NCBI GenBank assembly: GCA_005191425.1
Contig: SUPR01000015.1
Coordinates: forward strand, 1-32,000
Direction: 5' to 3'
DNA: 32,000 bases
From: Candidatus Helarchaeota ASGARD archaeon Hel_GB_B
GTDB lineage: Archaea > Asgardarchaeota > Lokiarchaeia > Helarchaeales > HEL-GB-B
In this document: piece by piece, positions 2,833 to 15,495 of the stretch
Layout of the letters: the number at the start of each line of letters is the position of its first letter
How positions within the stretch are numbered: the first letter of the stretch is position 1
Notes under the pieces: model-generated
The model's database searches: none
What the model saw: only the letters and a program-made list of their open reading frames with translations
Told to the model about the DNA's origin: nothing
Position numbers and translations under genes: made by a program

Positions 2833-2923
2833 AATATTATGATTTAATTTAATAAAATAAAATTAATATTTCAAGTGATAAATTTGAGAATTAGAAGTTG
2901 AGTAAATATTTATTTAAAATATT

Positions 2924-4180
2924 TTGTGGTCAAAAATTTGTGAAATAAAAATGATACCAAATAATAGCAATTCAAATTTTGCAGTATTTTCTATTTTAGG
3001 AAAGGACAGGCCGGGATTAGTTTCAATTATAACAGAAAAATTGGTCAATAATAAAATCAATATAGTAGATATTGAAGCTCGTTCAATGAGAGGACTTTTT
3101 GCGATGTTTATAATAATTGATCTAAATGATGAAAAAATATCGATCAACGAGTTAAGAGAAATTTATGCCGATTTAGGTAAAAAATATGATTTAAAGATTT
3201 CAATTGAAAAATATAAAAAAGGAAGGAGGAAATCTGATAAAAAGCTTATTTTATTAACTGCATTAGGTCCAGATAGACCAGGAATAGTTTTTAATTTGTC
3301 GAAGCTTTTTGAAAAATATAAAGTCAATATAGAACATATAAGAATGACGAGTAGAGGAGAATTATTTGCAATGGAAATGTTAATTGATATTAGCGACTTA
3401 TTAATAAGTTCTAATGATTTTAGGATGGAAATTCAGGCAGTTTGTGAAGATATTGGCTTAAGTTCAGTAATTCAAAAAGAAGATATCTATAATAAAACGA
3501 AAAAACTGATTGTTTTTGATATGGACAGTACATTAATAACGCAAGAAATTATTGATGAGATTGCTATTGCAGCTGGAGCAGGGGAAGAAGTTAAGGAAAT
3601 AACATTAAAAGCTATGGAAGGAAAAATAAGTTATATAGAAGCAATAAAGCAAAGAGTTAAACTTTTAGAAGGTGTTAATGTTAGTGTATTGGAAACTATT
3701 GCAAAAAATATGATATTAACACCTGGCGCTGAAGAGTTAATTAATTTATTAAAGATGATGGGGTTTAAAATTGCGATTATAAGTGGTGGATTTGATTATT
3801 TTACAAATATTTTAAAACAAAAGTTAGGGATCGATTATGTTTTTTCCAATAAATTAATAATAAAAGATGGGAAATTGACAGGGGAATTAGAAGAGCCGAT
3901 AATTGACGGTAAAAAAAAGGGTGAATTGATTTCATGGATAGCTGAGTTAGAAGGTATTTCTAAAGATGAAATAGTAGCTGTGGGAGATGGAGCAACAGAT
4001 AAATTTATGTTGAATGAATCAGGCCTTGGAATTGCGTTTAACCCAAAACCAGTATTAAAAAAATTTGCAGATGGCGTGATTACACAAAAAAATTTAATTG
4101 GTCTATTATATGTTTTAGGAATTTCAGATAAAAAATTAAATGAAATGTTATTAAAAATAAAAAATGATAAAGAAAAATAA
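2924..4180 (+). CDS. serB: Phosphoserine phosphatase with two N-terminal ACT domains (ATG start probably 2951)
   Basis: ACT motifs GKDRPGLV and GPDRPGIV. HAD motifs FDMDSTLI, ISGGF, K and GDGATD. Confidence 0.95.
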   Translation: MWSKICEIKMIPNNSNSNFAVFSILGKDRPGLVSIITEKLVNNKINIVDIEARSMRGLFAMFIIIDLNDEKISINELREIYADLGKKYDLKISIEKYKKGRRKSDKKLILLTALGPDRPGIVFNLSKLFEKYKVNIEHIRMTSRGELFAMEMLIDISDLLISSNDFRMEIQAVCEDIGLSSVIQKEDIYNKTKKLIVFDMDSTLITQEIIDEIAIAAGAGEEVKEITLKAMEGKISYIEAIKQRVKLLEGVNVSVLETIAKNMILTPGAEELINLLKMMGFKIAIISGGFDYFTNILKQKLGIDYVFSNKLIIKDGKLTGELEEPIIDGKKKGELISWIAELEGISKDEIVAVGDGATDKFMLNESGLGIAFNPKPVLKKFADGVITQKNLIGLLYVLGISDKKLNEMLLKIKNDKEK

Positions 4181-5464: not shown

Positions 5465-5992
5465 TTAAATAATGTGTACTATATTATTAGCTATGTAAGC
5501 ATTAATTTGTTTTTCTTTAATTAACTGCTTGACCCAGTCTAATGCCTCTTCAAAATTTATTTCCAAAATTTCTGCAATATCATTAATCGATATTTCATCT
5601 TTATTTTTTATTATTTTATTAAAATCATTTATGGTGAGATATAGACATTTTTCATGTTCTGGTTTCCAATTTAATTTATTTATTAATTCTCGCGCTCGTT
5701 CATATATTGTTTGGTTCTGTGAACGGGATAACCAGACTAAATCTTGTTTAAATTCGAATAAATATTTGGGATTATTTTTAATTATTTTCAATAAAGCTTG
5801 ATAAGAGCTCCATTGTTTAAAATACAGTTTTTTTTCTTCTTTTTGTTTTTTAGGTATTTCTTTTTTAAAAAAATCAATTAATTTGGAGATTTCTTTAATT
5901 ACCCCTGAAAAATCATGGATTTGATGCAATTTGTTGATTGTATCTGAAATCTTTTTCACATCATTATGCCAAATATCTTCAATCTCTATCAT
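5465..5992 (-). CDS. Helical protein with C-terminal PCI-like winged-helix
   Basis: C-terminus EISINDIAEILEINFEEALDWVKQLIKEKQINAYIANNIVHI follows the PCI/PINT winged-helix pattern (ISL..LA..L.....EVE..L..LI..G.I.A.ID). The N-terminal part looks alpha-helical/HEAT-like. The CDS is likely real; the PCI call is by eye. Confidence 0.6.
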   Translation of the reverse strand: MIEIEDIWHNDVKKISDTINKLHQIHDFSGVIKEISKLIDFFKKEIPKKQKEEKKLYFKQWSSYQALLKIIKNNPKYLFEFKQDLVWLSRSQNQTIYERARELINKLNWKPEHEKCLYLTINDFNKIIKNKDEISINDIAEILEINFEEALDWVKQLIKEKQINAYIANNIVHII

Positions 5993-6121
5993 TAATAAAT
6001 ACTAAAATTATAATTTATAAAAATCTATGGTAGATCTTATTAAAAAGAGGGAAAAGTATAAATAAAAAAATAGAGTTTTTAGGAATTATTTCTAATTACA
6101 GATATATACTATTTAATAATA

Positions 6122-6334
6122 TTACATATTTTTAATCGCTAAAAGGATATCAGCTTTATTTACCTTTTTTCGGCCTGCATGCTTAGCTAATATCATTGCT
6201 CGTTGAGTTATTTCAATGCAAATATCTGTAAAATAAGAAACCAAGTAATCTACAGCTTCCCTAGCTACGATTTTGGCTCCATTTTCAGCCATAAGTGCCC
6301 TTATCGGGGACCATGCGATATATTTTCTAGCCAT
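6122..6334 (-). CDS. Archaeal histone (HMf-like fold, no long tail)
   Basis: IAWSPIRALMAENGAKIVAREAV...AKHAGRKKVNKADILLA matches the histone fold, with AxHAGRK-x-V-x-x-x-D loop 2/helix 3. GAGGT SD upstream. Confidence 0.95.
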   Translation of the reverse strand: MARKYIAWSPIRALMAENGAKIVAREAVDYLVSYFTDICIEITQRAMILAKHAGRKKVNKADILLAIKNM

Positions 6335-6413
6335 ATTTCAAACCTCAAAGTTAATTTATTAATAGACATATAATTGGGAATATTGTCTAATTTTAACCTA
6401 GTTAAGATAAGAA

Positions 6414-6428
6414 TATATAAATATTTTG
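6414..6428 (-). promoter_or_regulatory. Putative BRE/TATA promoter of the histone gene
   Basis: Minus strand reads CAAAATA-TTTATATA about 80 nt upstream of the ATG. The AT-rich background makes this uncertain. Confidence 0.35.
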
Positions 6429-6906
6429 GTTTAATATCATCATCATCACTTCTTAATAAAAAATATGAAAAATTGAAATATTAATGAAAATTAATTTTTA
6501 TCAACAAAATTTTATATTTTTTTATTTTTATTACGATGATAGTATATATATGCAAAATAATTTTTTTAACATCAAATTAGGTTTTTTTCGGTATAATCTT
6601 GAAATTAAACCATGATAATTGTACATTTAACTTTTTAGTTCAATTTTAAGGGTAGTATTAATATTTATTTTTTTAGAGAAATATGAAAAATAAAAAATTA
6701 AAATTGAAAAAATCAAGGAGGAATAAACGTGCACCATGACTAAATATTTATTTAGTTAAGCAATTCACTTTTGTCGAACCAATTGCAAATATTATGAAAT
6801 AACAGTGTAAATATTATTGATTAGAATTAAAAATAACTAATTGTTTCTTAGATAATTTAAAATATAACAAAAATTTATTTATTGAAATTAAATATAAGTA
6901 TTTAAA

Positions 6907-7914
6907 ATGAAATTGAAAAATTTAATAATAATTTTTTTGATTTTTAACGTAATTCCATATTATACAGAGATAAAGTCTAATGATAATTATTTGAACATAA
7001 TTTACGAAATTAATAACAATATTAATAAAAATAATATTATCAATACAGTATCAAAATTATGTGAAAATAATTCTAGAATTACTGGAACTCTTAATTGTAA
7101 TTATTCTGCATTTTATATTAGAAATGCATTAGAAAAAAATAATATATCAAATGTGTTTTTTCAATATTTTCCGTTTAATAATACAAAAGCAATAAATGTG
7201 ATAGGTAAATTAAAAAATCAAACTAAATTAAATTCAAATATATTGTTAATGGCGCATTATGACTCTATTTCAGTGGACAATATCGCGCCAGGGGCTAATG
7301 ATAATGCAGCCTCTGTAGCATGTATTATTGAAATAGCTAGATTACTTCAAATTATTTTAAAAGGAATTATTCCCCAGAGAAATTTGATTGTTTTATTAAC
7401 ATCCGGAGAAGAGGAAAGTCTATGTGGATCGAATTCTTGGATTATTAATAATCCACAAACAATTTCGACCTTACTTTGTGTAATAAATTTTGATATGATT
7501 GGATACGGCGAATATCATACAGTAATTTCCAATGAAGATTCAAATTGGTTGGCAAGGTATATTATTGAGTGTGGGACTACTATGAATTTACACATCTCTA
7601 AATCATATGCAATATATCCAGCTACTGCAAGGTCAGATCATGCTAATTTTATGTATATGAATATACCCACAGCTTGGATTTTTGAACAAGACGATTATTA
7701 TGTTTGGATGCATACGGCACAAGATACTATTGACAAAATAAATTTTTCATTAGTGAGTAATTGTGCAAAATTATTCACGTTTATTTTGTACAAACTTATG
7801 ATAGAAAAAAGAGGAACAAATTATTCAATAATTGGCTTGATTTTTTTGAATCTACTAATTTTATTACCAATTAGATTTTATTTTATTAGAAAAATTAATA
7901 TTAACAAAAAATAA
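6907..7914 (+). CDS. Exported, membrane-anchored M28-family Zn aminopeptidase
   Basis: Signal-like N-terminus. AHYDS, GANDNAAS, GEEE, NFDMIG, RSDH and HTAQD ligand motifs. C-terminal TM helix followed by basic residues. Confidence 0.92.
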   Translation: MKLKNLIIIFLIFNVIPYYTEIKSNDNYLNIIYEINNNINKNNIINTVSKLCENNSRITGTLNCNYSAFYIRNALEKNNISNVFFQYFPFNNTKAINVIGKLKNQTKLNSNILLMAHYDSISVDNIAPGANDNAASVACIIEIARLLQIILKGIIPQRNLIVLLTSGEEESLCGSNSWIINNPQTISTLLCVINFDMIGYGEYHTVISNEDSNWLARYIIECGTTMNLHISKSYAIYPATARSDHANFMYMNIPTAWIFEQDDYYVWMHTAQDTIDKINFSLVSNCAKLFTFILYKLMIEKRGTNYSIIGLIFLNLLILLPIRFYFIRKININKK

Positions 7915-7923
7915 ATGATAGTT

Positions 7924-8811
7924 TCAATGATTTTTGACAATAAAATTATAAATATATTCAATATCTTCTTTATCAAATTCATCTAATAGATTTGCAATGA
8001 TTTTTTCCTTGTCCATAATATATTGGCATTTTCTTATACCTTGAATATGGTCTAAAATTGTAAGCAATTTATGATTTTTATTAATTTGGTCATTATTATT
8101 AAGCAAATCATAATTTACTTCCCAAATAATTTGAGATTTGACCCATAAAGTTCTAAGTGCATCTAGAATTTTAGGACTGATTTTTGTCCCCCAAGATTTT
8201 TCACCTGGAAAATGTGCGCAACGTCCTACCCAACATTTAAGGTTTTTATCCCATTTATTGACCGCGTTTATAATGGGGTATTTTGCACATGTAGAGGGTT
8301 TATATTTATGGATTAAACATTCCCTCGTGCCGTCTTTCAAGGCAGTGCATGTAACCTCGTTTTGATAAATTTTAGTTTTCAAAATAATTTTTCTATTCGT
8401 TTTAATAAATTGAGATGGTGAGAGTAATTTTTCATTTAAAATCCTGTAATAATCCAATTTACTAACCGTATAACTTGAATGACAACATCCATGGGGGTCA
8501 GGACAATCTTCTAGGCAATTTGGCGAAAATAATGCAATTTTATATAAAAAAGCCTCCCGAATAGAGTCATGAATTTTCACGCTGTTTATAATTATACTTT
8601 TTGAAAGAATATCACTAAAAATTGAATAAATTGGATGATTCATAAGATTACTATTATTATTACAGACTTTTCTTATTTTTTCATCCCAATTTTCCCTTTT
8701 TAGGTCTACTTCCAATACCTTTAGATATTTAATAATTTCAGAAAATGTATCTAGAAGAAATTCAAATTGCGAGCCTTTTAAAGGACTTAATATCTCGATT
8801 AAAGGAATCAA
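7924..8811 (-). CDS. YkgJ-family cysteine-cluster (putative Fe-S/Zn) protein
   Basis: CLEDCPDPHGCC ... CTAL...ECLIHKYKPSTCAKYP. TTG start with GGAGA SD. Confidence 0.75.
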   Translation of the reverse strand: MIPLIEILSPLKGSQFEFLLDTFSEIIKYLKVLEVDLKRENWDEKIRKVCNNNSNLMNHPIYSIFSDILSKSIIINSVKIHDSIREAFLYKIALFSPNCLEDCPDPHGCCHSSYTVSKLDYYRILNEKLLSPSQFIKTNRKIILKTKIYQNEVTCTALKDGTRECLIHKYKPSTCAKYPIINAVNKWDKNLKCWVGRCAHFPGEKSWGTKISPKILDALRTLWVKSQIIWEVNYDLLNNNDQINKNHKLLTILDHIQGIRKCQYIMDKEKIIANLLDEFDKEDIEYIYNFIVKNH

Positions 8812-9002: not shown

Positions 9003-10451
9003 GTGGTTTTAATGTCATATATCGAGAAATCTTTAAGCTGGATAATAAATAGAATGATTTTAAGTGGAATAAAAACATTATCTAAAGGAATTAATTTATT
9101 TTTTACAAGTATTGTATTAGTAATGATCGTATCTAGTTCTCTTGCAGGGTCTCTAATTCCAATAATTGGTATTATTCCGTTTCAATATATAATGGCTATT
9201 CAATTTAGTGTTATGATTGGGTTTTTAATTTCTAGTGTAATTTTTTTAAAGATCAAATCAAGTATACTAAGGATATTAATTTCATTAGGGTTAATCAGTA
9301 TTATTTCTGTTTATATTATTATGAATAATTCATTCTTAGCTTTATGTTATGATTTAACTGGATTTATTATTTTAATTAGTCTGATCTTAATGGTATTAAA
9401 TATAGTAATTTTTATAAAAAATACCCAAAATTCCTGGTATTTACAATTATTAATGTTGGGCAAATCTCCAAGGCATTTCTTTTTTGAAAAAGTATTTAAA
9501 TTTCTAACAATAGCAAGTTTCTTTTTATTTATTTATCCAATATATGAATATTTAATTTCTTGGAATCCATATCATATTATTTTAGCGATTTTTGGTATTA
9601 CGGCAGGTATTTTAAGTTCAATCTCCATATTTAAAACACTAAAATTTGAGTTTAATGATATTTATAAAAGTATTATTTCTATATTGTATCTAATTTCATT
9701 TATATTCTTGTATTTTTATTATGAGAATACTTTTTTAATTATTACAATCGACCTATTAATTTTTAGTATGACATTTTTAAGTATGGTCCAACATGTAAAA
9801 TATTGGAAGACAGAAGGAGGGATTTCAAGCGTAAAAATAGATGCGCCAAGAAATATAGAGGATAAAAGCAGAAATAGAACCGAGGAAGAAGTTATTTTTG
9901 ATGAATCAGATGATTCAGTAATTATAATTGATAATATCAGTGATAAACAAATAGATAATGAAGTAGAAATTCCAATAACAGAAGAAAAGCCGGGAGTAAC
10001 AGATAAATTAAGTTATTATTTAATTATTATGGTATTAATATTAAGCATTCAGTTGCTGTTTTTAAGATATTTCAGTTTGTTTTTTGGAATGAATTTATTT
10101 TCATTAATATTGTTTCAAGATTTCTCGTTAACAAATTATATTCTAACTTTGGGAATATATATATCAATAATTATTATTTTTGTATTATATTTTATGTCTG
10201 ATAGGTTCCGAAATTATTTTACATTCCCGCCAGGCATCCGAAAATCATTTTTAGAATTCCTTTCTTTGATGGACAGAAAAGAGCGAACAAAACTATTGAG
10301 AGCAATAAGTAGGACAGTCCAACAAATAATAGTAGAAGGGTTAATTGAATTAATTGAATCGGAAAAAGGAAATATCATTGATACAATTAGTGAAGGTATA
10401 AAAAGAGGAGCAAAGTTTTTTAGAAGTATTTTTGGAGATAGAGAAGATTAA
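9003..10451 (+). CDS. Uncharacterised polytopic membrane protein (roughly 11-13 TM) with an acidic internal loop and a soluble helical C-tail
   Basis: Many hydrophobic segments. Acidic loop EEEVIFDESDDSV...EEK at about aa 270-335. No recognisable motif. Confidence 0.75.
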   Translation: MVLMSYIEKSLSWIINRMILSGIKTLSKGINLFFTSIVLVMIVSSSLAGSLIPIIGIIPFQYIMAIQFSVMIGFLISSVIFLKIKSSILRILISLGLISIISVYIIMNNSFLALCYDLTGFIILISLILMVLNIVIFIKNTQNSWYLQLLMLGKSPRHFFFEKVFKFLTIASFFLFIYPIYEYLISWNPYHIILAIFGITAGILSSISIFKTLKFEFNDIYKSIISILYLISFIFLYFYYENTFLIITIDLLIFSMTFLSMVQHVKYWKTEGGISSVKIDAPRNIEDKSRNRTEEEVIFDESDDSVIIIDNISDKQIDNEVEIPITEEKPGVTDKLSYYLIIMVLILSIQLLFLRYFSLFFGMNLFSLILFQDFSLTNYILTLGIYISIIIIFVLYFMSDRFRNYFTFPPGIRKSFLEFLSLMDRKERTKLLRAISRTVQQIIVEGLIELIESEKGNIIDTISEGIKRGAKFFRSIFGDRED

Positions 10452-10478: not shown

Positions 10479-10865
10479 TTATTGTAAATTCTCTAACAAT
10501 CTGTCTATTAATTCCATACAGTCGTTAATCATTTCTTTATTATAATCGCCTATATTTACTATTGAGATTACAGGTAGATTTGTTTTATGAGAGATTTTTT
10601 CGCCGAATGCTTTAGATATTAATTCATCTTTACCACCGAAAGCTAGTGGAATAGTAGTTGAACTTATTCTACTATCACCAACTTGAAATTTAGATGGTAT
10701 TGAAATAGTTAATAACCCTAATTTAAAACTATTTTTTGAGAGAATGAATATGAGTGCATTTTCCAATTTGGTAATTGCTGCATTTAATGAATAATTTTCT
10801 TTTTTAATAGAATCCGAGGTCCATTTTAATGATTGTAAATTAAAATCTTTCATCTTTAATTTCAC
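10479..10865 (-). CDS. Hypothetical protein, possibly proteasome assembly chaperone 4 (PAC4)-like
   Basis: 128 aa with KLENALIFILS...KLGLLTISIP...SKAFGEKISHKTNLPVISIVN. This resembles from memory the archaeal PAC3/PAC4-like pattern (beta-strands, LG-L-++-P, helix-K-T---V-+S). Not verified by search. Confidence 0.45.
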   Translation of the reverse strand: MKLKMKDFNLQSLKWTSDSIKKENYSLNAAITKLENALIFILSKNSFKLGLLTISIPSKFQVGDSRISSTTIPLAFGGKDELISKAFGEKISHKTNLPVISIVNIGDYNKEMINDCMELIDRLLENLQ

Positions 10866-10913
10866 ATCATATTATAGAAAACTTTTTTAAATATTGTTTC
10901 CATTATAAAAATC

Positions 10914-11013
10914 AAGGGGCGGTACCCTAAAGAAATTCTCTTTAGGAACCCCTTTTGACGAGCAAATATGCGATGAGGATGAAAAGATGATTTGCAGATT
11001 TTTTTAATCTGCA
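10914..11013. ncRNA. Candidate structured RNA / cis-element of three stem-loops
   Basis: AAGGGG(10914-19)/CCCCTT(10949-54) enclosing CCTAAAGA(10926-33)/TCTTTAGG(10939-46). GCAAAT(10962-67)/ATTTGC(10990-95). TGCAGATT(10993-11000)/AATCTGCA(11006-13). Visibly GC-richer than its flanks. Confidence 0.4.
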
Positions 11014-11200
11014 TTTCAACCACTGCATTATTAAAATTTAAAAAAGTAAATTTCCAATTCTTTTTTTTATTAAGTCTTATTTTCAATTGTTTTAATCCGT
11101 AAGATTTTAAAAAATATGACATTTTTTAATGTCATTTTAAACATATAAGTCTTTTGAATGGAATATTTTAAGAAAATCTAATTGTAATTAATTGTCTGAA

Positions 11201-14011
11201 TTAGAAAATACTATATTTTACTATTGGACACCAATAATTACATTTTAAGCAATGAATACATTTGTTACTATTTATAAGTGGGGGTAGTTCAGAAGATATT
11301 TGATAAATAGCGCCTTGATCACATATAGAAAGACAATTTAAACAACCAATACAATATTGGAGTCTTAATAAAGTTGATTTCAAATTTTTAATAAGTTCAT
11401 TTGCTATATCTTTATTATCTGCTGTTATTTCAAAATTACCATCAGAGAATATTTTCAAATTTCCATTTTTTATATTGATATTAAGGGAATTTTCTGTAGT
11501 ATTTATATATGGCTTTCCAATGATATTTATAATATTCAAAATGTTGTTTATATTAGAGAAGTTTTCGATCATTCCATTTATTTTAAATATATTTTTTGAT
11601 TTAGTTTCGTTATTAATATGCAATATCTTTTTTTCATTTTGTTTAATATTTTTTAAAGGAATTAACGCAATTTTTTTAGATTTTGCCCAATTTTTCACTT
11701 TTTGAGGAGGTTCAATCCACCGCCATAACCCATAAATAATAAAATCATCGGAAATTTGGTAATGACCAATATACTGTTTAAGTATTTGTTTTAAATATTT
11801 CCACAAATTTTCATGGTCTTCCCGAAGTAAATGGAAATTTGAAGGATCTTGGAATGGACAGATCCAGCACCCAACTCGTTCGCGCCCATAATGTTCATAA
11901 ATAGGGTTAATAGGCAAATTATTTTTAAAGATGTAAAGCCAAATTAATAGTGCATTCCAATCATAAATTGGATGGACGCTATAGGCATTTGGTAGCCAAG
12001 GATTTATATTTAATCTATAATTAAGTGTTCGACTATTACTTTCATAAGACCTTAAACCTACAAACGATAAACACCCATCTGGAAATTGTTTTCGATAGAG
12101 TTTATTAGTAGGTCCAAATTTATAAATTTTACAACACCATCTGTTGTCTAATTGAGGTGGACCTAAGAGTTCAGAAATGGTTTTCAAATCTCTGGGCTCA
12201 TCTATTTGGATATATTTATTTAGTAATCCCAATTTTTTAATACAATCAACGACATATTTATTAGTTTCTGGAAATTCTATTTCAGATTTGACATAATTTA
12301 CAGTAAAATCATCTAACGCCTTCATAGTAAGTGCAACAGTAACTAAACTATCTTTACCTCCTGAAAATGGGACAGTAACTTTTAATTCTTTATAGAGATC
12401 TTTTATTTTTTTAATGAATAAAATGGACTCTTCTTCATATTTATTTAAAATTTTATTATTTGCTTTAATGACTTGAGACCAACTTTGACCCCCAGGAAGT
12501 TCATTATTCTTGAATTTGGGTTGTAAATTAAGTATTTGAACAAATTTTTTATCGGATTTAAATTTTTTTGACGTAGGTTTTCCAATTCCTATGACATGAT
12601 TTTTTCGGACAATAAAAACTAAATCGTTAGGTTGTAGGCTGGTCAAATTTGAATCAATAATATCTTCTTTATCCAAAAATTGAAATGTTTTGAAATTTTT
12701 ATTAGGGGCAATCTTTATCCAATTTCCTTTACCTGCAGCATATAACCTTTTTGCACCTTCTATAGAAGGGATAAAGATAAATTTAAGAATTTCTTCATTA
12801 TATTTAACTTTTCCGATAATTTGACCGTCTATAATAACTTCCATTTGACGCGATTTTACTCTAGGAACCCTATTTAGTAATATAATTTTGTTATTTGGTA
12901 TTAAAATCTGTCCACTTGGAGTTCCATACTGGGAATTAATAATATTCCGTATTCGTTCAATATTTATTTTAAAAGCAGGACGTACATCTCCAACTCCAGA
13001 TAAATGGACCAAAAATGTAGGATATGAACATACTGGACATTTTTTCATTTCGATTATTGGAATATTACAATTTTTACACCATCTAATTTTATTTTCAAGC
13101 CAAACATATGGTTCTAAATCATTCAAACTGATTTCTTTTGGTCTTGAAACTAATTTAGCTGTATTTCTAAGTATTAAAAAGCAACCTATATCTGATGGAA
13201 CTAATTTTATATCACCTTTATTATATGGACCAATTGATATGCTATTAAAATTAATTTCAGGGACATCTTTTATGAAAAATAATTTGAGATTAAAGGAATT
13301 ATTTAACTGAAATGATCGGTCAATTGTAAAATTTTTTAATTCATTTTCAGTGCCAAGTAAAATTGACTGGAGACCAGTACTTCCATGTAAAGTATTGGGG
13401 AGTCTTATAATTCTTTTTAAATCAAGAAGGACATTAAAGTCAATGGGAAAATTTTCTTCTTGTATGATTTTATTAATAAATTCTCTATTTAATATCTCGA
13501 CATTATTAATATCTTCAATTTCATTATTTGAATTTTCAATATTTTTAAAATAAAATTCACTATTATCATAATCTAATACATAAAGGTGAAATCCTTTATA
13601 GCCAGTCCATAAATAAGCGAATTTAGAAAATCCAAAATTATTTTTGAGATATTTTTTTAATCTTAATACTTCTTCTTTTCCTGATTCAAATTGATTTATG
13701 TCAAAAATATCATTTATTATATCAAAATCAAAAACTAAATTAGTACCTAAACATTTAATTAAATTGCTTTTTCGTCCCATTTTTTCAGGATTTAACCATT
13801 TGGAGAGAGAGTAATAAACATTTTTTGCTGGAAATTTTTTAACAATGAATGATTGAATGTTTCGTTTATTTAAGATTTTTTTCTTGGCTTTAATCCAATA
13901 TCCATTAAATAATTGTTTTCTAAAATGATAAAATTTAAGGTACTGGGGTACCCAAGGGGAATATTTATTTTCATAAAACTTTTTGAAGAAATAGCTTATA
14001 ATTGGTTCCAT
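11201..14011 (-). CDS. Fusion: PriS-like archaeo-eukaryotic primase domain (aa 1-~290) + Zn-finger/PUA-like/PAPS-reductase-family PP-loop domain + C-terminal 2x[4Fe-4S] ferredoxin
   Basis: AEP motifs VFDFD (aa 93-97), TGYKGFH (136-142) and ID-x5-D-x2-RIIRLPNTLHG (190-210). Then WCKNCNIP..CPVC, GDVRPAF, FSGGKDS, RWCCKIYKFGP, GLRSYES, RVGCWICP, CIGCLNCLSIC and CIHCLKCNYWCP. Confidence 0.88.
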   Translation of the reverse strand: MEPIISYFFKKFYENKYSPWVPQYLKFYHFRKQLFNGYWIKAKKKILNKRNIQSFIVKKFPAKNVYYSLSKWLNPEKMGRKSNLIKCLGTNLVFDFDIINDIFDINQFESGKEEVLRLKKYLKNNFGFSKFAYLWTGYKGFHLYVLDYDNSEFYFKNIENSNNEIEDINNVEILNREFINKIIQEENFPIDFNVLLDLKRIIRLPNTLHGSTGLQSILLGTENELKNFTIDRSFQLNNSFNLKLFFIKDVPEINFNSISIGPYNKGDIKLVPSDIGCFLILRNTAKLVSRPKEISLNDLEPYVWLENKIRWCKNCNIPIIEMKKCPVCSYPTFLVHLSGVGDVRPAFKINIERIRNIINSQYGTPSGQILIPNNKIILLNRVPRVKSRQMEVIIDGQIIGKVKYNEEILKFIFIPSIEGAKRLYAAGKGNWIKIAPNKNFKTFQFLDKEDIIDSNLTSLQPNDLVFIVRKNHVIGIGKPTSKKFKSDKKFVQILNLQPKFKNNELPGGQSWSQVIKANNKILNKYEEESILFIKKIKDLYKELKVTVPFSGGKDSLVTVALTMKALDDFTVNYVKSEIEFPETNKYVVDCIKKLGLLNKYIQIDEPRDLKTISELLGPPQLDNRWCCKIYKFGPTNKLYRKQFPDGCLSFVGLRSYESNSRTLNYRLNINPWLPNAYSVHPIYDWNALLIWLYIFKNNLPINPIYEHYGRERVGCWICPFQDPSNFHLLREDHENLWKYLKQILKQYIGHYQISDDFIIYGLWRWIEPPQKVKNWAKSKKIALIPLKNIKQNEKKILHINNETKSKNIFKINGMIENFSNINNILNIINIIGKPYINTTENSLNINIKNGNLKIFSDGNFEITADNKDIANELIKNLKSTLLRLQYCIGCLNCLSICDQGAIYQISSELPPLINSNKCIHCLKCNYWCPIVKYSIF

Positions 14012-14136
14012 TTTAATTCCTGTAAATCAATATAACTTTATTTTGAAAGAATTGTAGATAAATCTTAAGATTAATTTAATAATAAGATTTGTGAATAAAT
14101 ATATTTATCGAAATACTTTATTTTGAAAATAATGAG

Positions 14137-15495
14137 GTGGCTTTTCTGGATAACGAATTAGATAGAGAAATATTAGCTGTTGAAGCCTTATCGTTAATTG
14201 AAGAAGAGAAAGTGTCAGAGAGAGAAGCATTAAAAAGAATATCCAATTTACATAATATAACTGATTGGAAAATAAGGAGTACTTTACATGCTCTATTATT
14301 TGAAACGCTAAGATATAGAAATCTGATAGATTTCATTATTAATTCAGTTATGGAAAAAGGTACTATAGAAAAAATAAAAAGCGTTTTTTTAAGAAATATC
14401 CTAAGAATAGGAGTCTACCAAATTAAAATCATAAAAAAGCAAATAAATTTAATTTGTAACACATTGGTTGAGTTAGTGAAAAAAAAAAGTTCTAAAAGAG
14501 CTGCTAATTTTGTAAATGCCATTTTGAGGTCGGCTGAAAGATTTGATTTAGAGTCAGAATTGGACAAATTAAACAAAAAAGAATATTTAGCCCTCAAATA
14601 TTCGCATCCAAAATGGTTTATTGAATTATTAAGTCCTTATTTTTCAGACGAATTCATCGTTTCTTTAATGGAGCAAAATAATAAGCACCTTCCAATATGT
14701 ATTAGGGTTAATTTAACGATTAATGATATAAATGAAGTTATTGAGGAATTTGATGCAGAAAATTATGAGTATAAAATTTATCCAGAATTTCCAGATATGA
14801 TCGAGATTTATTCTAGTAGTAAACCCATTGTCCGGACAAATGCATTTAAAAGAAATGGTATTTATATCCAGAGTAAATCCAGCATATTAGTGTCTTATAT
14901 TTTAGACCCCAAGCCATCAGATTTAATCTATGATTTTACAGCAGCTCCTGGTTCTAAAACCTTGCATATTGCCCAACTTATGGGAAATAAGGGAAATATC
15001 ATAGCTTTTGATCGTTCTTTAAGACGATTAAAAGAATTACAAATAAAAAAGGGCCTTGTAAAAAGTGATCTAATTAATCTTATTAATTCAAATTCTACAT
15101 ATTTAAGAGACTGCCTACGATATAAAGCAGATAAAATTCTTGTGGACCCACCATGTAGTGGCTCAGGAACTTTTTCAAATAGGCCTTTTACAAAATATAA
15201 ATCATTAAGAGGCCAATTAAAAGCCCTTACATATCTACAATGGAAATTATTAGATACAGCAGTTAATTTAGTAAAACATGGAGGGGTCATAGTATATTCG
15301 ACGTGTTCTATCACTTTAGAAGAAAATGAAGTGATAATTAGAAAATTATTAGAAAAATATTCAGATATAATATTAGACAAACAATCCCCATTTATAGGAA
15401 TGAAAGGTTTTTTAGGATTAAATGAAACACAAAGATTATTTCCAAATCTACACAAAACTGAAGGATTTTTTATCGCAAAATTAAGAAAAAAGTAG
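14137..15495 (+). CDS. rsmB: RsmB/Fmu/NSUN-family RNA m5C methyltransferase with N-terminal NusB-like domain
   Basis: NusB-like LRIGVYQI...NFVNAILR. SAM motif DFTAAPGSKT, motif IV VDPPCSGSG, motif VI VYSTCS and EENE. Confidence 0.92.
   Translation: MAFLDNELDREILAVEALSLIEEEKVSEREALKRISNLHNITDWKIRSTLHALLFETLRYRNLIDFIINSVMEKGTIEKIKSVFLRNILRIGVYQIKIIKKQINLICNTLVELVKKKSSKRAANFVNAILRSAERFDLESELDKLNKKEYLALKYSHPKWFIELLSPYFSDEFIVSLMEQNNKHLPICIRVNLTINDINEVIEEFDAENYEYKIYPEFPDMIEIYSSSKPIVRTNAFKRNGIYIQSKSSILVSYILDPKPSDLIYDFTAAPGSKTLHIAQLMGNKGNIIAFDRSLRRLKELQIKKGLVKSDLINLINSNSTYLRDCLRYKADKILVDPPCSGSGTFSNRPFTKYKSLRGQLKALTYLQWKLLDTAVNLVKHGGVIVYSTCSITLEENEVIIRKLLEKYSDIILDKQSPFIGMKGFLGLNETQRLFPNLHKTEGFFIAKLRKK

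Follow-up and report, generated by a model that had tools for sequence, protein, structure and literature searches.

The archaeal primase subunit PriS ends in a domain that is also found in GINS (PMC2861644), and BrxP, a protein of type-4 (phosphorothioation-type) bacteriophage exclusion (BREX) systems, is built from a PAPS (3'-phosphoadenosine 5'-phosphosulfate) reductase domain, an alpha+beta domain, a ferredoxin-type Cys-rich region and DUF4007 (PMC12839542). A third group, the MJ0066/MJ0973/PRK13795 proteins, is widespread in archaea and annotated as PAPS reductases. Here I describe a gene that joins a domain of the first kind to a complete member of the third. It lies in the window, by which I mean the whole stretch of 32,000 nucleotides analysed (positions 1 to 32,000, forward strand, of contig SUPR01000015.1, assembly GCA_005191425.1, Candidatus Helarchaeota ASGARD archaeon Hel_GB_B, order Helarchaeales). 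The original prediction, made from the sequence alone, had proposed one uninterrupted frame of 936 residues, and the open reading frame (ORF) is indeed unbroken from its ATG start (protein P0001). The fusion gene is real, lineage-specific and joins two enzymes; both halves are members of known superfamilies, and their combination is reported in none of the papers searched. As to function, the reading that I favour, at even odds, is that P0001 is a bifunctional nucleic-acid enzyme that couples nucleotidyl transfer to ATP-dependent sulfur insertion.

The layout of the protein is given below, with residues numbered along P0001 and nucleotide coordinates as positions within the window. AEP stands for archaeo-eukaryotic primase and AF2 for AlphaFold2.

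11201..14011 (-): whole fusion ORF, P0001, 936 residues; orthologues P0003-P0007; AF2 model.
13142..14011 (-): predicted PriS-like AEP domain, residues 1-290, without the zinc knuckle of PriS; profile, phmmer, alignment, Foldseek.
13721..13729 (-): AEP motif I, D95-F-D97, predicted metal ligands; invariant in alignment A1.
13586..13606 (-): AEP motif II, T136-GYKGF-H142; G137, G140, F141 and H142 invariant.
13373..13441 (-): AEP motif III and nucleotide-binding stretch, D191...D197-LKRIIRLPNTLHGSTG; invariant residues, aligned with 'DLHRLIRFPNSLHGKTG' of PriS.
13142..13294 (-): PriS C-terminal/GINS-B-like beta domain, residues ~240-290; BLASTP to the genome's own PriS, weak Gins51_C match.
13088..13141 (-): linker, residues 291-308, L.P..WLENK.RW, kept in fused orthologues; alignments A1 and A3.
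13010..13087 (-): zinc ribbon, C312/C315/C325/C328, the N-terminus in stand-alone family members; invariant Cys columns.
12512..12985 (-): pre-PUA (TGT_C2-like) and PUA-fold module, residues ~343-500, with a degenerate 'GANLLxPG'; weak TGT_C2 match, domain model.
11855..12379 (-): PP-loop PAPS_reduct domain, residues 545-719, with SGGKDS at 550-555 and Fe-S cysteines C626, C627, C715 and C718; Pfam, alignment.
11372..11854 (-): helical linker and alpha/beta domain, residues 720-880, common to BrxP; secondary structure, BrxP profile, PMC12839542.
11219..11362 (-): 2x[4Fe-4S] ferredoxin domain, residues 884-931, eight Cys; Pfam, alignment.

Pfam matches PAPS_reduct at residues 545-719 (E 4.6e-31) and the 4Fe-4S dicluster (Fer4) at 884-929 and, below threshold, DNA_primase_S at 113-151, TGT_C2 at 352-425 and Gins51_C at 246-288; neither half reaches the curated cut-off of its closest named family in Pfam or NCBIfam. 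The AF2 model of the whole of P0001 has a predicted local distance difference test score (pLDDT) of 94.1 and a predicted template-modelling score (pTM) of 0.92, and such a high-confidence single-body prediction is compatible with one integrated enzyme.

The source is a fragmented metagenome-assembled genome (MAG) of 3.54 Mb in 182 contigs, 93.7% complete and with 4.9% contamination, which would favour an assembly chimera or a frameshift artefact joining two separate genes, but I regard such an artefact as next to impossible. The junction, which the original prediction had placed near 13100-13150, is crossed without an indel by Logan contigs from runs of two different studies (X1 record 5, 12688-14150; X2 record 9, 12770-13379), and the Logan runs showed only three single-nucleotide polymorphisms within the ORF. 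No RNA dataset was listed as containing the gene, which tells nothing of its expression. The sole methionine near the junction lies inside the zinc ribbon; the original prediction had noted neither a Shine-Dalgarno sequence nor an ATG at the junction. Since one bridging contig may be from the source sample, the orthologues are the stronger argument for the fusion. A word-indexed search with residues 1-300 returned P0001's own cluster and five further fused clusters of 889-945 residues from other samples, with 53-59% identity in the N-terminal domain; across the C-terminal part the same six clusters show 54-63% identity, and every cluster with a named source carries a Helarchaeota or Lokiarchaeota MAG label. 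They share the architecture, and the conserved linker runs directly into the zinc ribbon. Furthermore, the gene order of the window recurs around P0003 (234-kb contig), around P0006 (52- and 13-kb contigs) and in G305, a species representative of the same genus: XPD helicase, GGACT, a small ORF, a divergent NusB/RsmB methyltransferase, the fusion, a ~125-residue PAC4-like protein, proteins of ~480 and ~300 residues, and an M28 peptidase. The fusion is thus not peculiar to one assembly: the orthologous clusters, the synteny in G305 and the junction-bridging contigs refute an artefact in practice, and no chance explanation is tenable.

Among seven species representatives of the order, only those of the window's genus (the window's genome and G305) carry the fusion, which is a narrow, lineage-specific innovation. 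In an exhaustive HMMER scan of 1.84 billion representatives, which gave 506 relatives, the best 150 matches include only one fused representative and no fused architecture outside the fused clade, and no fold-cluster representative of the AlphaFold database (AFDB) spans both halves. As the original prediction had supposed, no such fusion is described in the literature searched, nor is a tRNA role for PUA-PAPS reductases; two recent surveys of Asgard primases make no mention of a second PriS-like domain (PMC12770985, PMC12680538).

The match of residues 4-287 to the NCBIfam PriS model PRK00419.1-3 takes in almost the whole model (E 3e-15), and phmmer aligns Sulfolobus (S. solfataricus) PriS (1zt2; E 2.7e-9) in all three motif regions. 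With Foldseek, the best PDB matches are Sulfolobus PriS, 1zt2 and 5of3 (E 1e-13; template-modelling (TM) score by target 0.66), then Pyrococcus and human PriS, and Swiss-Prot PriS models align over the same residues. In alignment A1, which contains the six fused sequences and nine stand-alone relatives at 23-61% overall identity to P0001, the following are invariant: D95 and D97 (motif I), G137, G140, F141 and H142 (motif II) and D191, D197, R200, R203, P205 and H209 (motif III region). All three catalytic motifs are kept, as had been claimed. The PriS-type C-terminal beta domain of the original prediction is also recovered, in that residues 190-288 align with residues 267-364 of the genome's own PriS (BLASTP, 28% identity, E 3e-9), alongside the weak Gins51_C match. 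Judged by these sequence comparisons, residues 1-290 are a predicted PriS-like AEP nucleotidyl-transferase domain with its catalytic residues intact.

A different possibility is that the AEP domain is a non-catalytic module derived from PriS that binds or recruits, for example to PriL or the replisome, and that the protein performs only the PP-loop/Fe-S chemistry. The loss of the zinc knuckle speaks for this (residues 98-136, between motifs I and II, hold no Cys/His ligands, and the genome's own PriS has a Cys/His-rich insert there), as do the DNA_primase_S score (PF01896, 17.9 bits, under the cut-off of 26.8; NF001641 is not reached either, 56 versus 326 bits), the long stem of the fused clade in the AEP tree described below and the retention of the PriS C-terminal/GINS-B-like domain, which is of the protein-interaction type. 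However, every catalytic and nucleotide-binding residue is invariant in the fused and stand-alone sequences, and invariance across so wide a range of identity is not expected of a mere scaffold. I therefore consider a non-catalytic role unlikely and favour a domain that would still transfer nucleotides.

The window's genome contains a canonical pair of priL (399 residues) and priS (364 residues), followed by an unassigned 191-residue ORF, on another contig (C124), so the fused AEP domain is a supernumerary paralogue and the fusion protein is not the replicative primase. This removes the earlier caveat that it might be the only priS in the genome, and agrees with the claim that ordinary priming is not its role. 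The fusion gene is not adjacent to priL, and a predicted complex of the AEP domain (residues 1-300) with the genome's own PriL scored 0.00 in a prediction made without controls, a score that speaks neither for nor against binding. One could imagine an alternative, self-contained primase, with the zinc ribbon and Fe-S clusters replacing PriL or a UL52-type zinc finger and with the PP-loop secondary: the zinc ribbon directly follows the AEP core, the Fe-S clusters are in cis, and PriS fusions with partner domains are known, such as PolpTN2 (PMC3973330). This is highly improbable, as canonical PriSL is present, the distribution of the fusion is very narrow, and the C-terminal half does not resemble the helical Fe-S domain of PriL: it is an entire, conserved enzyme whose PP-loop is invariant.

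The nearest relatives of the AEP domain lie elsewhere. After the fused representative, the best matches of the HMMER scan are stand-alone proteins of ~284-295 residues, matched end to end at 32-39% identity, followed by a ~400-440-residue class and a ~240-residue class that match over residues ~10-225; canonical PriS proteins are matched in several stretches. In a maximum-likelihood tree of AEPs, the fused clade (SH-like approximate likelihood ratio test, SH-aLRT, 100; stem 1.04) falls inside a group of 16 rows (SH-aLRT 92) that otherwise consists of stand-alone AEPs, ~220-324 residues long, and the canonical PriS clade, which includes the genome's own PriS, stands apart (31 rows, SH-aLRT 99). 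The fused AEP domain thus appears, from tree and alignments, to descend from a rare stand-alone family of ~290-residue Asgard AEPs and not from canonical PriS. These small stand-alone AEPs are patchily spread over several families among 301 genomes of the phylum.

The stand-alone AEPs have neighbours of their own, although an all-against-all BLAST found no shared small partner ORF at their loci. At L088, a 765-residue prokaryotic Argonaute (pAgo) gene (5556-7853, +; PADLOC E 1.7e-47), with a ThiF/BilD-like gene upstream, is overlapped at its 3' end by 13 nt by P0011, a 293-residue stand-alone AEP of the same family as the fused domain (7841-8722, +); this may be a defence-type island in which a polymerase module goes with pAgo. 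At L041, in the Asgard genome G265, an XPF-type nuclease gene (ERCC4 + HhH; 2149-2799, +), a 100-residue ORF (2897-3199, +) and a small AEP (3209-4153, +) are co-oriented, which hints at a repair-type operon. The placement of small AEPs beside pAgo and XPF genes hints at a polymerase module that Asgard nucleic-acid systems could reuse as a 'plug-in'. The larger ~400-440-residue Asgard class (P0017, P0020, P0024 and others) has an AEP without zinc knuckle in its first ~225 residues and a C-terminal half without a Pfam match, and occurs in the sister family of Helarchaeales (G294:C109:14201-14803; G301:C258:2742-3350).

The C-terminal half (residues ~305-936) is a complete member of the archaeal PAPS-reductase-like family, as the original prediction had stated. 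Residues 308-934 match NCBIfam PRK13795.1-3 (NF010368), an archaeal 'hypothetical protein' equivalog, from end to end (model positions 11-633, E 9e-130), with a score of 434 bits versus an equivalog cut-off of 588. By structure, this half comes nearest in Swiss-Prot to MJ0066 of M. jannaschii (TM by hit 0.88, aligned over 306-770) and to MJ0973 (342-780), both 'uncharacterized' there, and a sequence search against the PDB found no match at E <= 0.01. All expected cysteines are present, four in the zinc ribbon (312/315/325/328), C626/C627...C715/C718 and eight in the ferredoxin domain. SGGKDS, C626, C715 and C718 are invariant in 52 sequences (six fused and 46 canonical); C627 is kept in 44 of the 46 canonical proteins and in three of the six fused ones, and a new cysteine, C590, is invariant within the fused clade. 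Folded alone (pLDDT 87), the middle module matches PH0734.1, MCT-1, eIF2D, Nip7 and the C2/C3 domains of archaeosine TGT (ArcTGT) at E 2e-5 to 2e-3, that is, two-domain pre-PUA/PUA proteins that bind tRNA or rRNA. PF01472 (PUA) gives no match on P0001 or P0003 and is clear in unfused relatives. The PUA-like region proposed earlier therefore stands as a fold in the domain model, whereas its signature motif is degenerate in the fused clade.

In the family tree, the fused lineage occupies a long branch (stem 0.99) and is not among the vertical copies of Helarchaeales and Lokiarchaeia. A second, unfused copy is present both in the window's genome and in G305; it groups with other Helarchaeales and Lokiarchaeia sequences and is thus the vertical one; as it has been retained, the fused copy is a supernumerary, diverged paralogue. 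The variable C627 and R624, the new C590 and the long stem indicate accelerated evolution of the fused lineage.

Some unfused family members have suggestive neighbours. P0172, a PRK13795-like protein at L079:2618-8345, has around it a PP-loop gene of TtuA/NcsA type, the sulfur carrier ThiS/SAMP2 and ThiI, and this one case looks like a tRNA-thiolation neighbourhood. In two Lokiarchaeia families (L070:3399-4676, +; L076:9797-11065, +), an unfused gene of PRK13795 type has as its divergent partner an HD + HD_assoc_2 gene, which I take to belong to a deoxynucleoside-triphosphate triphosphohydrolase-like family.

Outside its own family, the strongest profile match of P0001 is to BrxP (PADLOC PDLC02510; residues 512-926 against profile positions 100-500 of 779, E 2.4e-50), and an unfused orthologue behaves likewise (E 7e-44). 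SspD (1e-11) and DndC (7e-7), both partial PADLOC matches, and TIGR cysH (6e-11) are well behind, and the DndC family cut-off is not reached (TIGR03183, 28 versus 290 bits). Homologues of 780-830 residues, P0218 and P0249, lie in BREX-type loci that both carry BrxC/PglY and BrxL; the P0218 locus adds PglZ and a class-V aminotransferase, and the P0249 locus a weak match to the ScoMcrA sulfur-binding domain. By profile comparison, the core from PP-loop to ferredoxin is the same module as in BrxP of type-4 BREX.

The main competitor on this side is that the C-terminal half is a genuine assimilatory reductase of adenosine 5'-phosphosulfate (APS) or PAPS, with the AEP domain as an accessory or nucleotide-binding appendage. 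Its PAPS_reduct domain, its CC...CxxC motif, its structural matches to MJ0066/MJ0973 and to APS/PAPS reductases and the presence of ATP sulfurylase (sat) and APS kinase (cysC) genes in the genome all favour this, as does the thioredoxin-dependent reduction of APS and PAPS in vitro by two M. jannaschii enzymes, with a low kcat for MJ_0973 (PMC3448663, PMC10322725). Against it, the PP-loop is a canonical ATP-pyrophosphatase motif, SGGKDS, that aligns with GKDS of CysD, where E. coli PAPS reductase reads IQAAVS. The two M. jannaschii enzymes are presumably MJ0973 and MJ0066, the best Swiss-Prot structural matches of P0001. CysH proteins are marked by a C-terminal catalytic cysteine in an ECGLH-type tail; P0001 has no Cys between C718 and C887 of the ferredoxin domain and so no such tail, and C627 is replaced in half of the fused proteins. 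No sulfite reductase (NIR_SIR, PF01077) was found in the 93.7%-complete genome, and the gene is not near the sat-cysC cluster (G000:C118:47291-49802). The physiological role of the M. jannaschii-type enzymes has itself been called unresolved, and M. infernus has homologues, yet 'genetic potential is not enough' (PMC10322725). Because the PP-loop half is nearer to BrxP, SspD and DndC than to CysH and lacks the CysH-type cysteine, sulfate assimilation is unlikely, as the original prediction had argued, and I hold a genuine assimilatory reductase to be distinctly improbable. On the reading that I favour, the fusion protein is not the replicative primase, nor does it reduce APS or PAPS for sulfate assimilation.

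What, then, might such a protein do? In the coupled reading, the AEP domain would bind and/or extend a 3' end or primer-template, and the PP-loop domain would use ATP to adenylate one oxygen of that nucleic acid, whether of a phosphate in the backbone or of a carbonyl in a base. Sulfur brought in at the Fe-S site would then displace the adenylate, with the ferredoxin domain providing electrons. The degenerate PUA loop and the gain of the AEP domain suggest that its substrate is no longer that of the parental family. Of the coupled nucleotidyl-transfer/sulfur-transfer enzyme originally proposed, the conservation of both catalytic centres holds; what the enzyme acts on (RNA, primer or DNA), how its two sites would be coupled and its sulfur chemistry are what I infer.

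Several observations weigh against this coupled enzyme. R624, conserved in the family, is variable in the fused clade, as is C627, and the PUA loop 'GANLLxPG' is replaced there by 'EDIIDSNL' with a deletion; together these could reflect relaxed constraint rather than a new function. The stand-alone small AEPs examined (L008, L009, L040-L045, L087 and L088) have no PRK13795-type neighbour, so the adjacency of the two halves that might have been expected in other genomes was not found and their linkage has no independent instance. Neighbourhoods of canonical PRK13795 genes are heterogeneous, with no consistent theme. In 12 control genomes, too, the BrxP hidden Markov model gives matches, presumably by way of the common PAPS_reduct domain. 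Finally, the genome makes PAPS (sat and cysC on contig C118), which may serve sulfation rather than assimilation, and the only biochemistry reported for the family is the reduction of APS and PAPS by the M. jannaschii enzymes in vitro.

A bolder version of the idea is 'write-while-you-synthesise', in which the AEP domain would synthesise or lengthen a short stretch at a primer, at a nick or at the 3' end of an RNA and the BrxP-like module would sulfurate that same stretch, as phosphorothioate or thio-base. I think this quite unlikely to be true, but if it were, P0001 would be the first enzyme in which polymerisation and sulfur modification are directly coupled and, by Rosetta-stone logic, the whole MJ0066/MJ0973/PRK13795 'PAPS reductase' family would modify nucleic acids. 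Even without this, the gene places a second PriS-like polymerase domain, with its catalytic residues apparently intact, outside the replisome in an Asgard lineage. The fusion to a polymerase domain, the PUA fold and the core shared with BrxP make it a testable hypothesis that the MJ0066/MJ0973/PRK13795 family acts on nucleic acids, and if the two activities are coupled, DNA or RNA would be sulfur-modified by an enzymatic logic of a new kind.

The immediate neighbours of the fusion gene are listed here for context only.

14137..15495 (+): NusB/RsmB-type RNA m5C methyltransferase, divergent neighbour; conserved synteny.
10479..10865 (-): 128-residue, weakly PAC4-like, co-oriented downstream neighbour; in all orthologous loci.

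A 482-residue protein without a Pfam match (9003-10451, +) is syntenic in all fusion-bearing loci (E 9e-148 to G305). Between the fusion and the PAC4-like gene, an 86-residue ORF (10862-11122, -) overlaps a GC-rich hairpin element (10914-11013) and has no Rfam match; it has no counterpart in the orthologous loci and is thus probably not a gene. Rfam and tRNA scans of the window gave no match.

How does the fusion protein compare with the systems described so far? Like canonical PriS (PF01896; 1zt2/5of3), it has the AEP fold over residues 4-287, the three motifs and a GINS-B-like beta domain, as well as the archaeal-type 'YYS' motif ~27 residues before motif I (described in PMC12770985). Unlike PriS, its AEP domain lacks the zinc knuckle, is shorter (~290 residues versus 364 for the genome's own PriS), is not beside priL, is tied to a 630-residue enzyme and falls in a separate clade with small stand-alone Asgard AEPs. 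PolpTN2 (PriS + PriL-like) and the fused primase of N. equitans (PMC3973330, PMC12680538) also combine a PriS-type AEP core with a C-terminal partner, but in the Helarchaeales fusion the partner does not derive from PriL and is an entire PP-loop/Fe-S enzyme. With CysH (2goy, 1sur) it shares the PAPS_reduct fold (Foldseek E ~1e-6) and a CC...CxxC motif as in APS reductases, whereas its canonical PP-loop, extra domains, absence of a C-terminal catalytic Cys and weak similarity (phmmer E 0.015) set it apart. BrxP agrees with it in the order PP-loop, alpha/beta domain and ferredoxin-type Cys-rich region, matched over residues 512-926, but the fusion has no DUF4007 (there is no match past profile position 500) and begins with the AEP domain and the zinc ribbon/PUA region instead of the N-terminal region of BrxP. 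SspD and DndC of DNA phosphorothioation are more distant than BrxP, and, unlike BREX, Dnd and Ssp systems, the fusion loci have no such neighbours, only a housekeeping-type syntenic context (RsmB, XPD, PAC4-like, M28 peptidase). Closest of all are the MJ0066/MJ0973/PRK13795 proteins, colinear over residues 308-934 from the zinc ribbon through pre-PUA/PUA, SGGKDS, CC...CxxC and alpha/beta to the ferredoxin domain, from which the fused protein differs in being only ~30% identical, below the family cut-off and on a long branch, with a degenerate PUA motif, a variable R624 and C627, the new C590 and, above all, an AEP domain.

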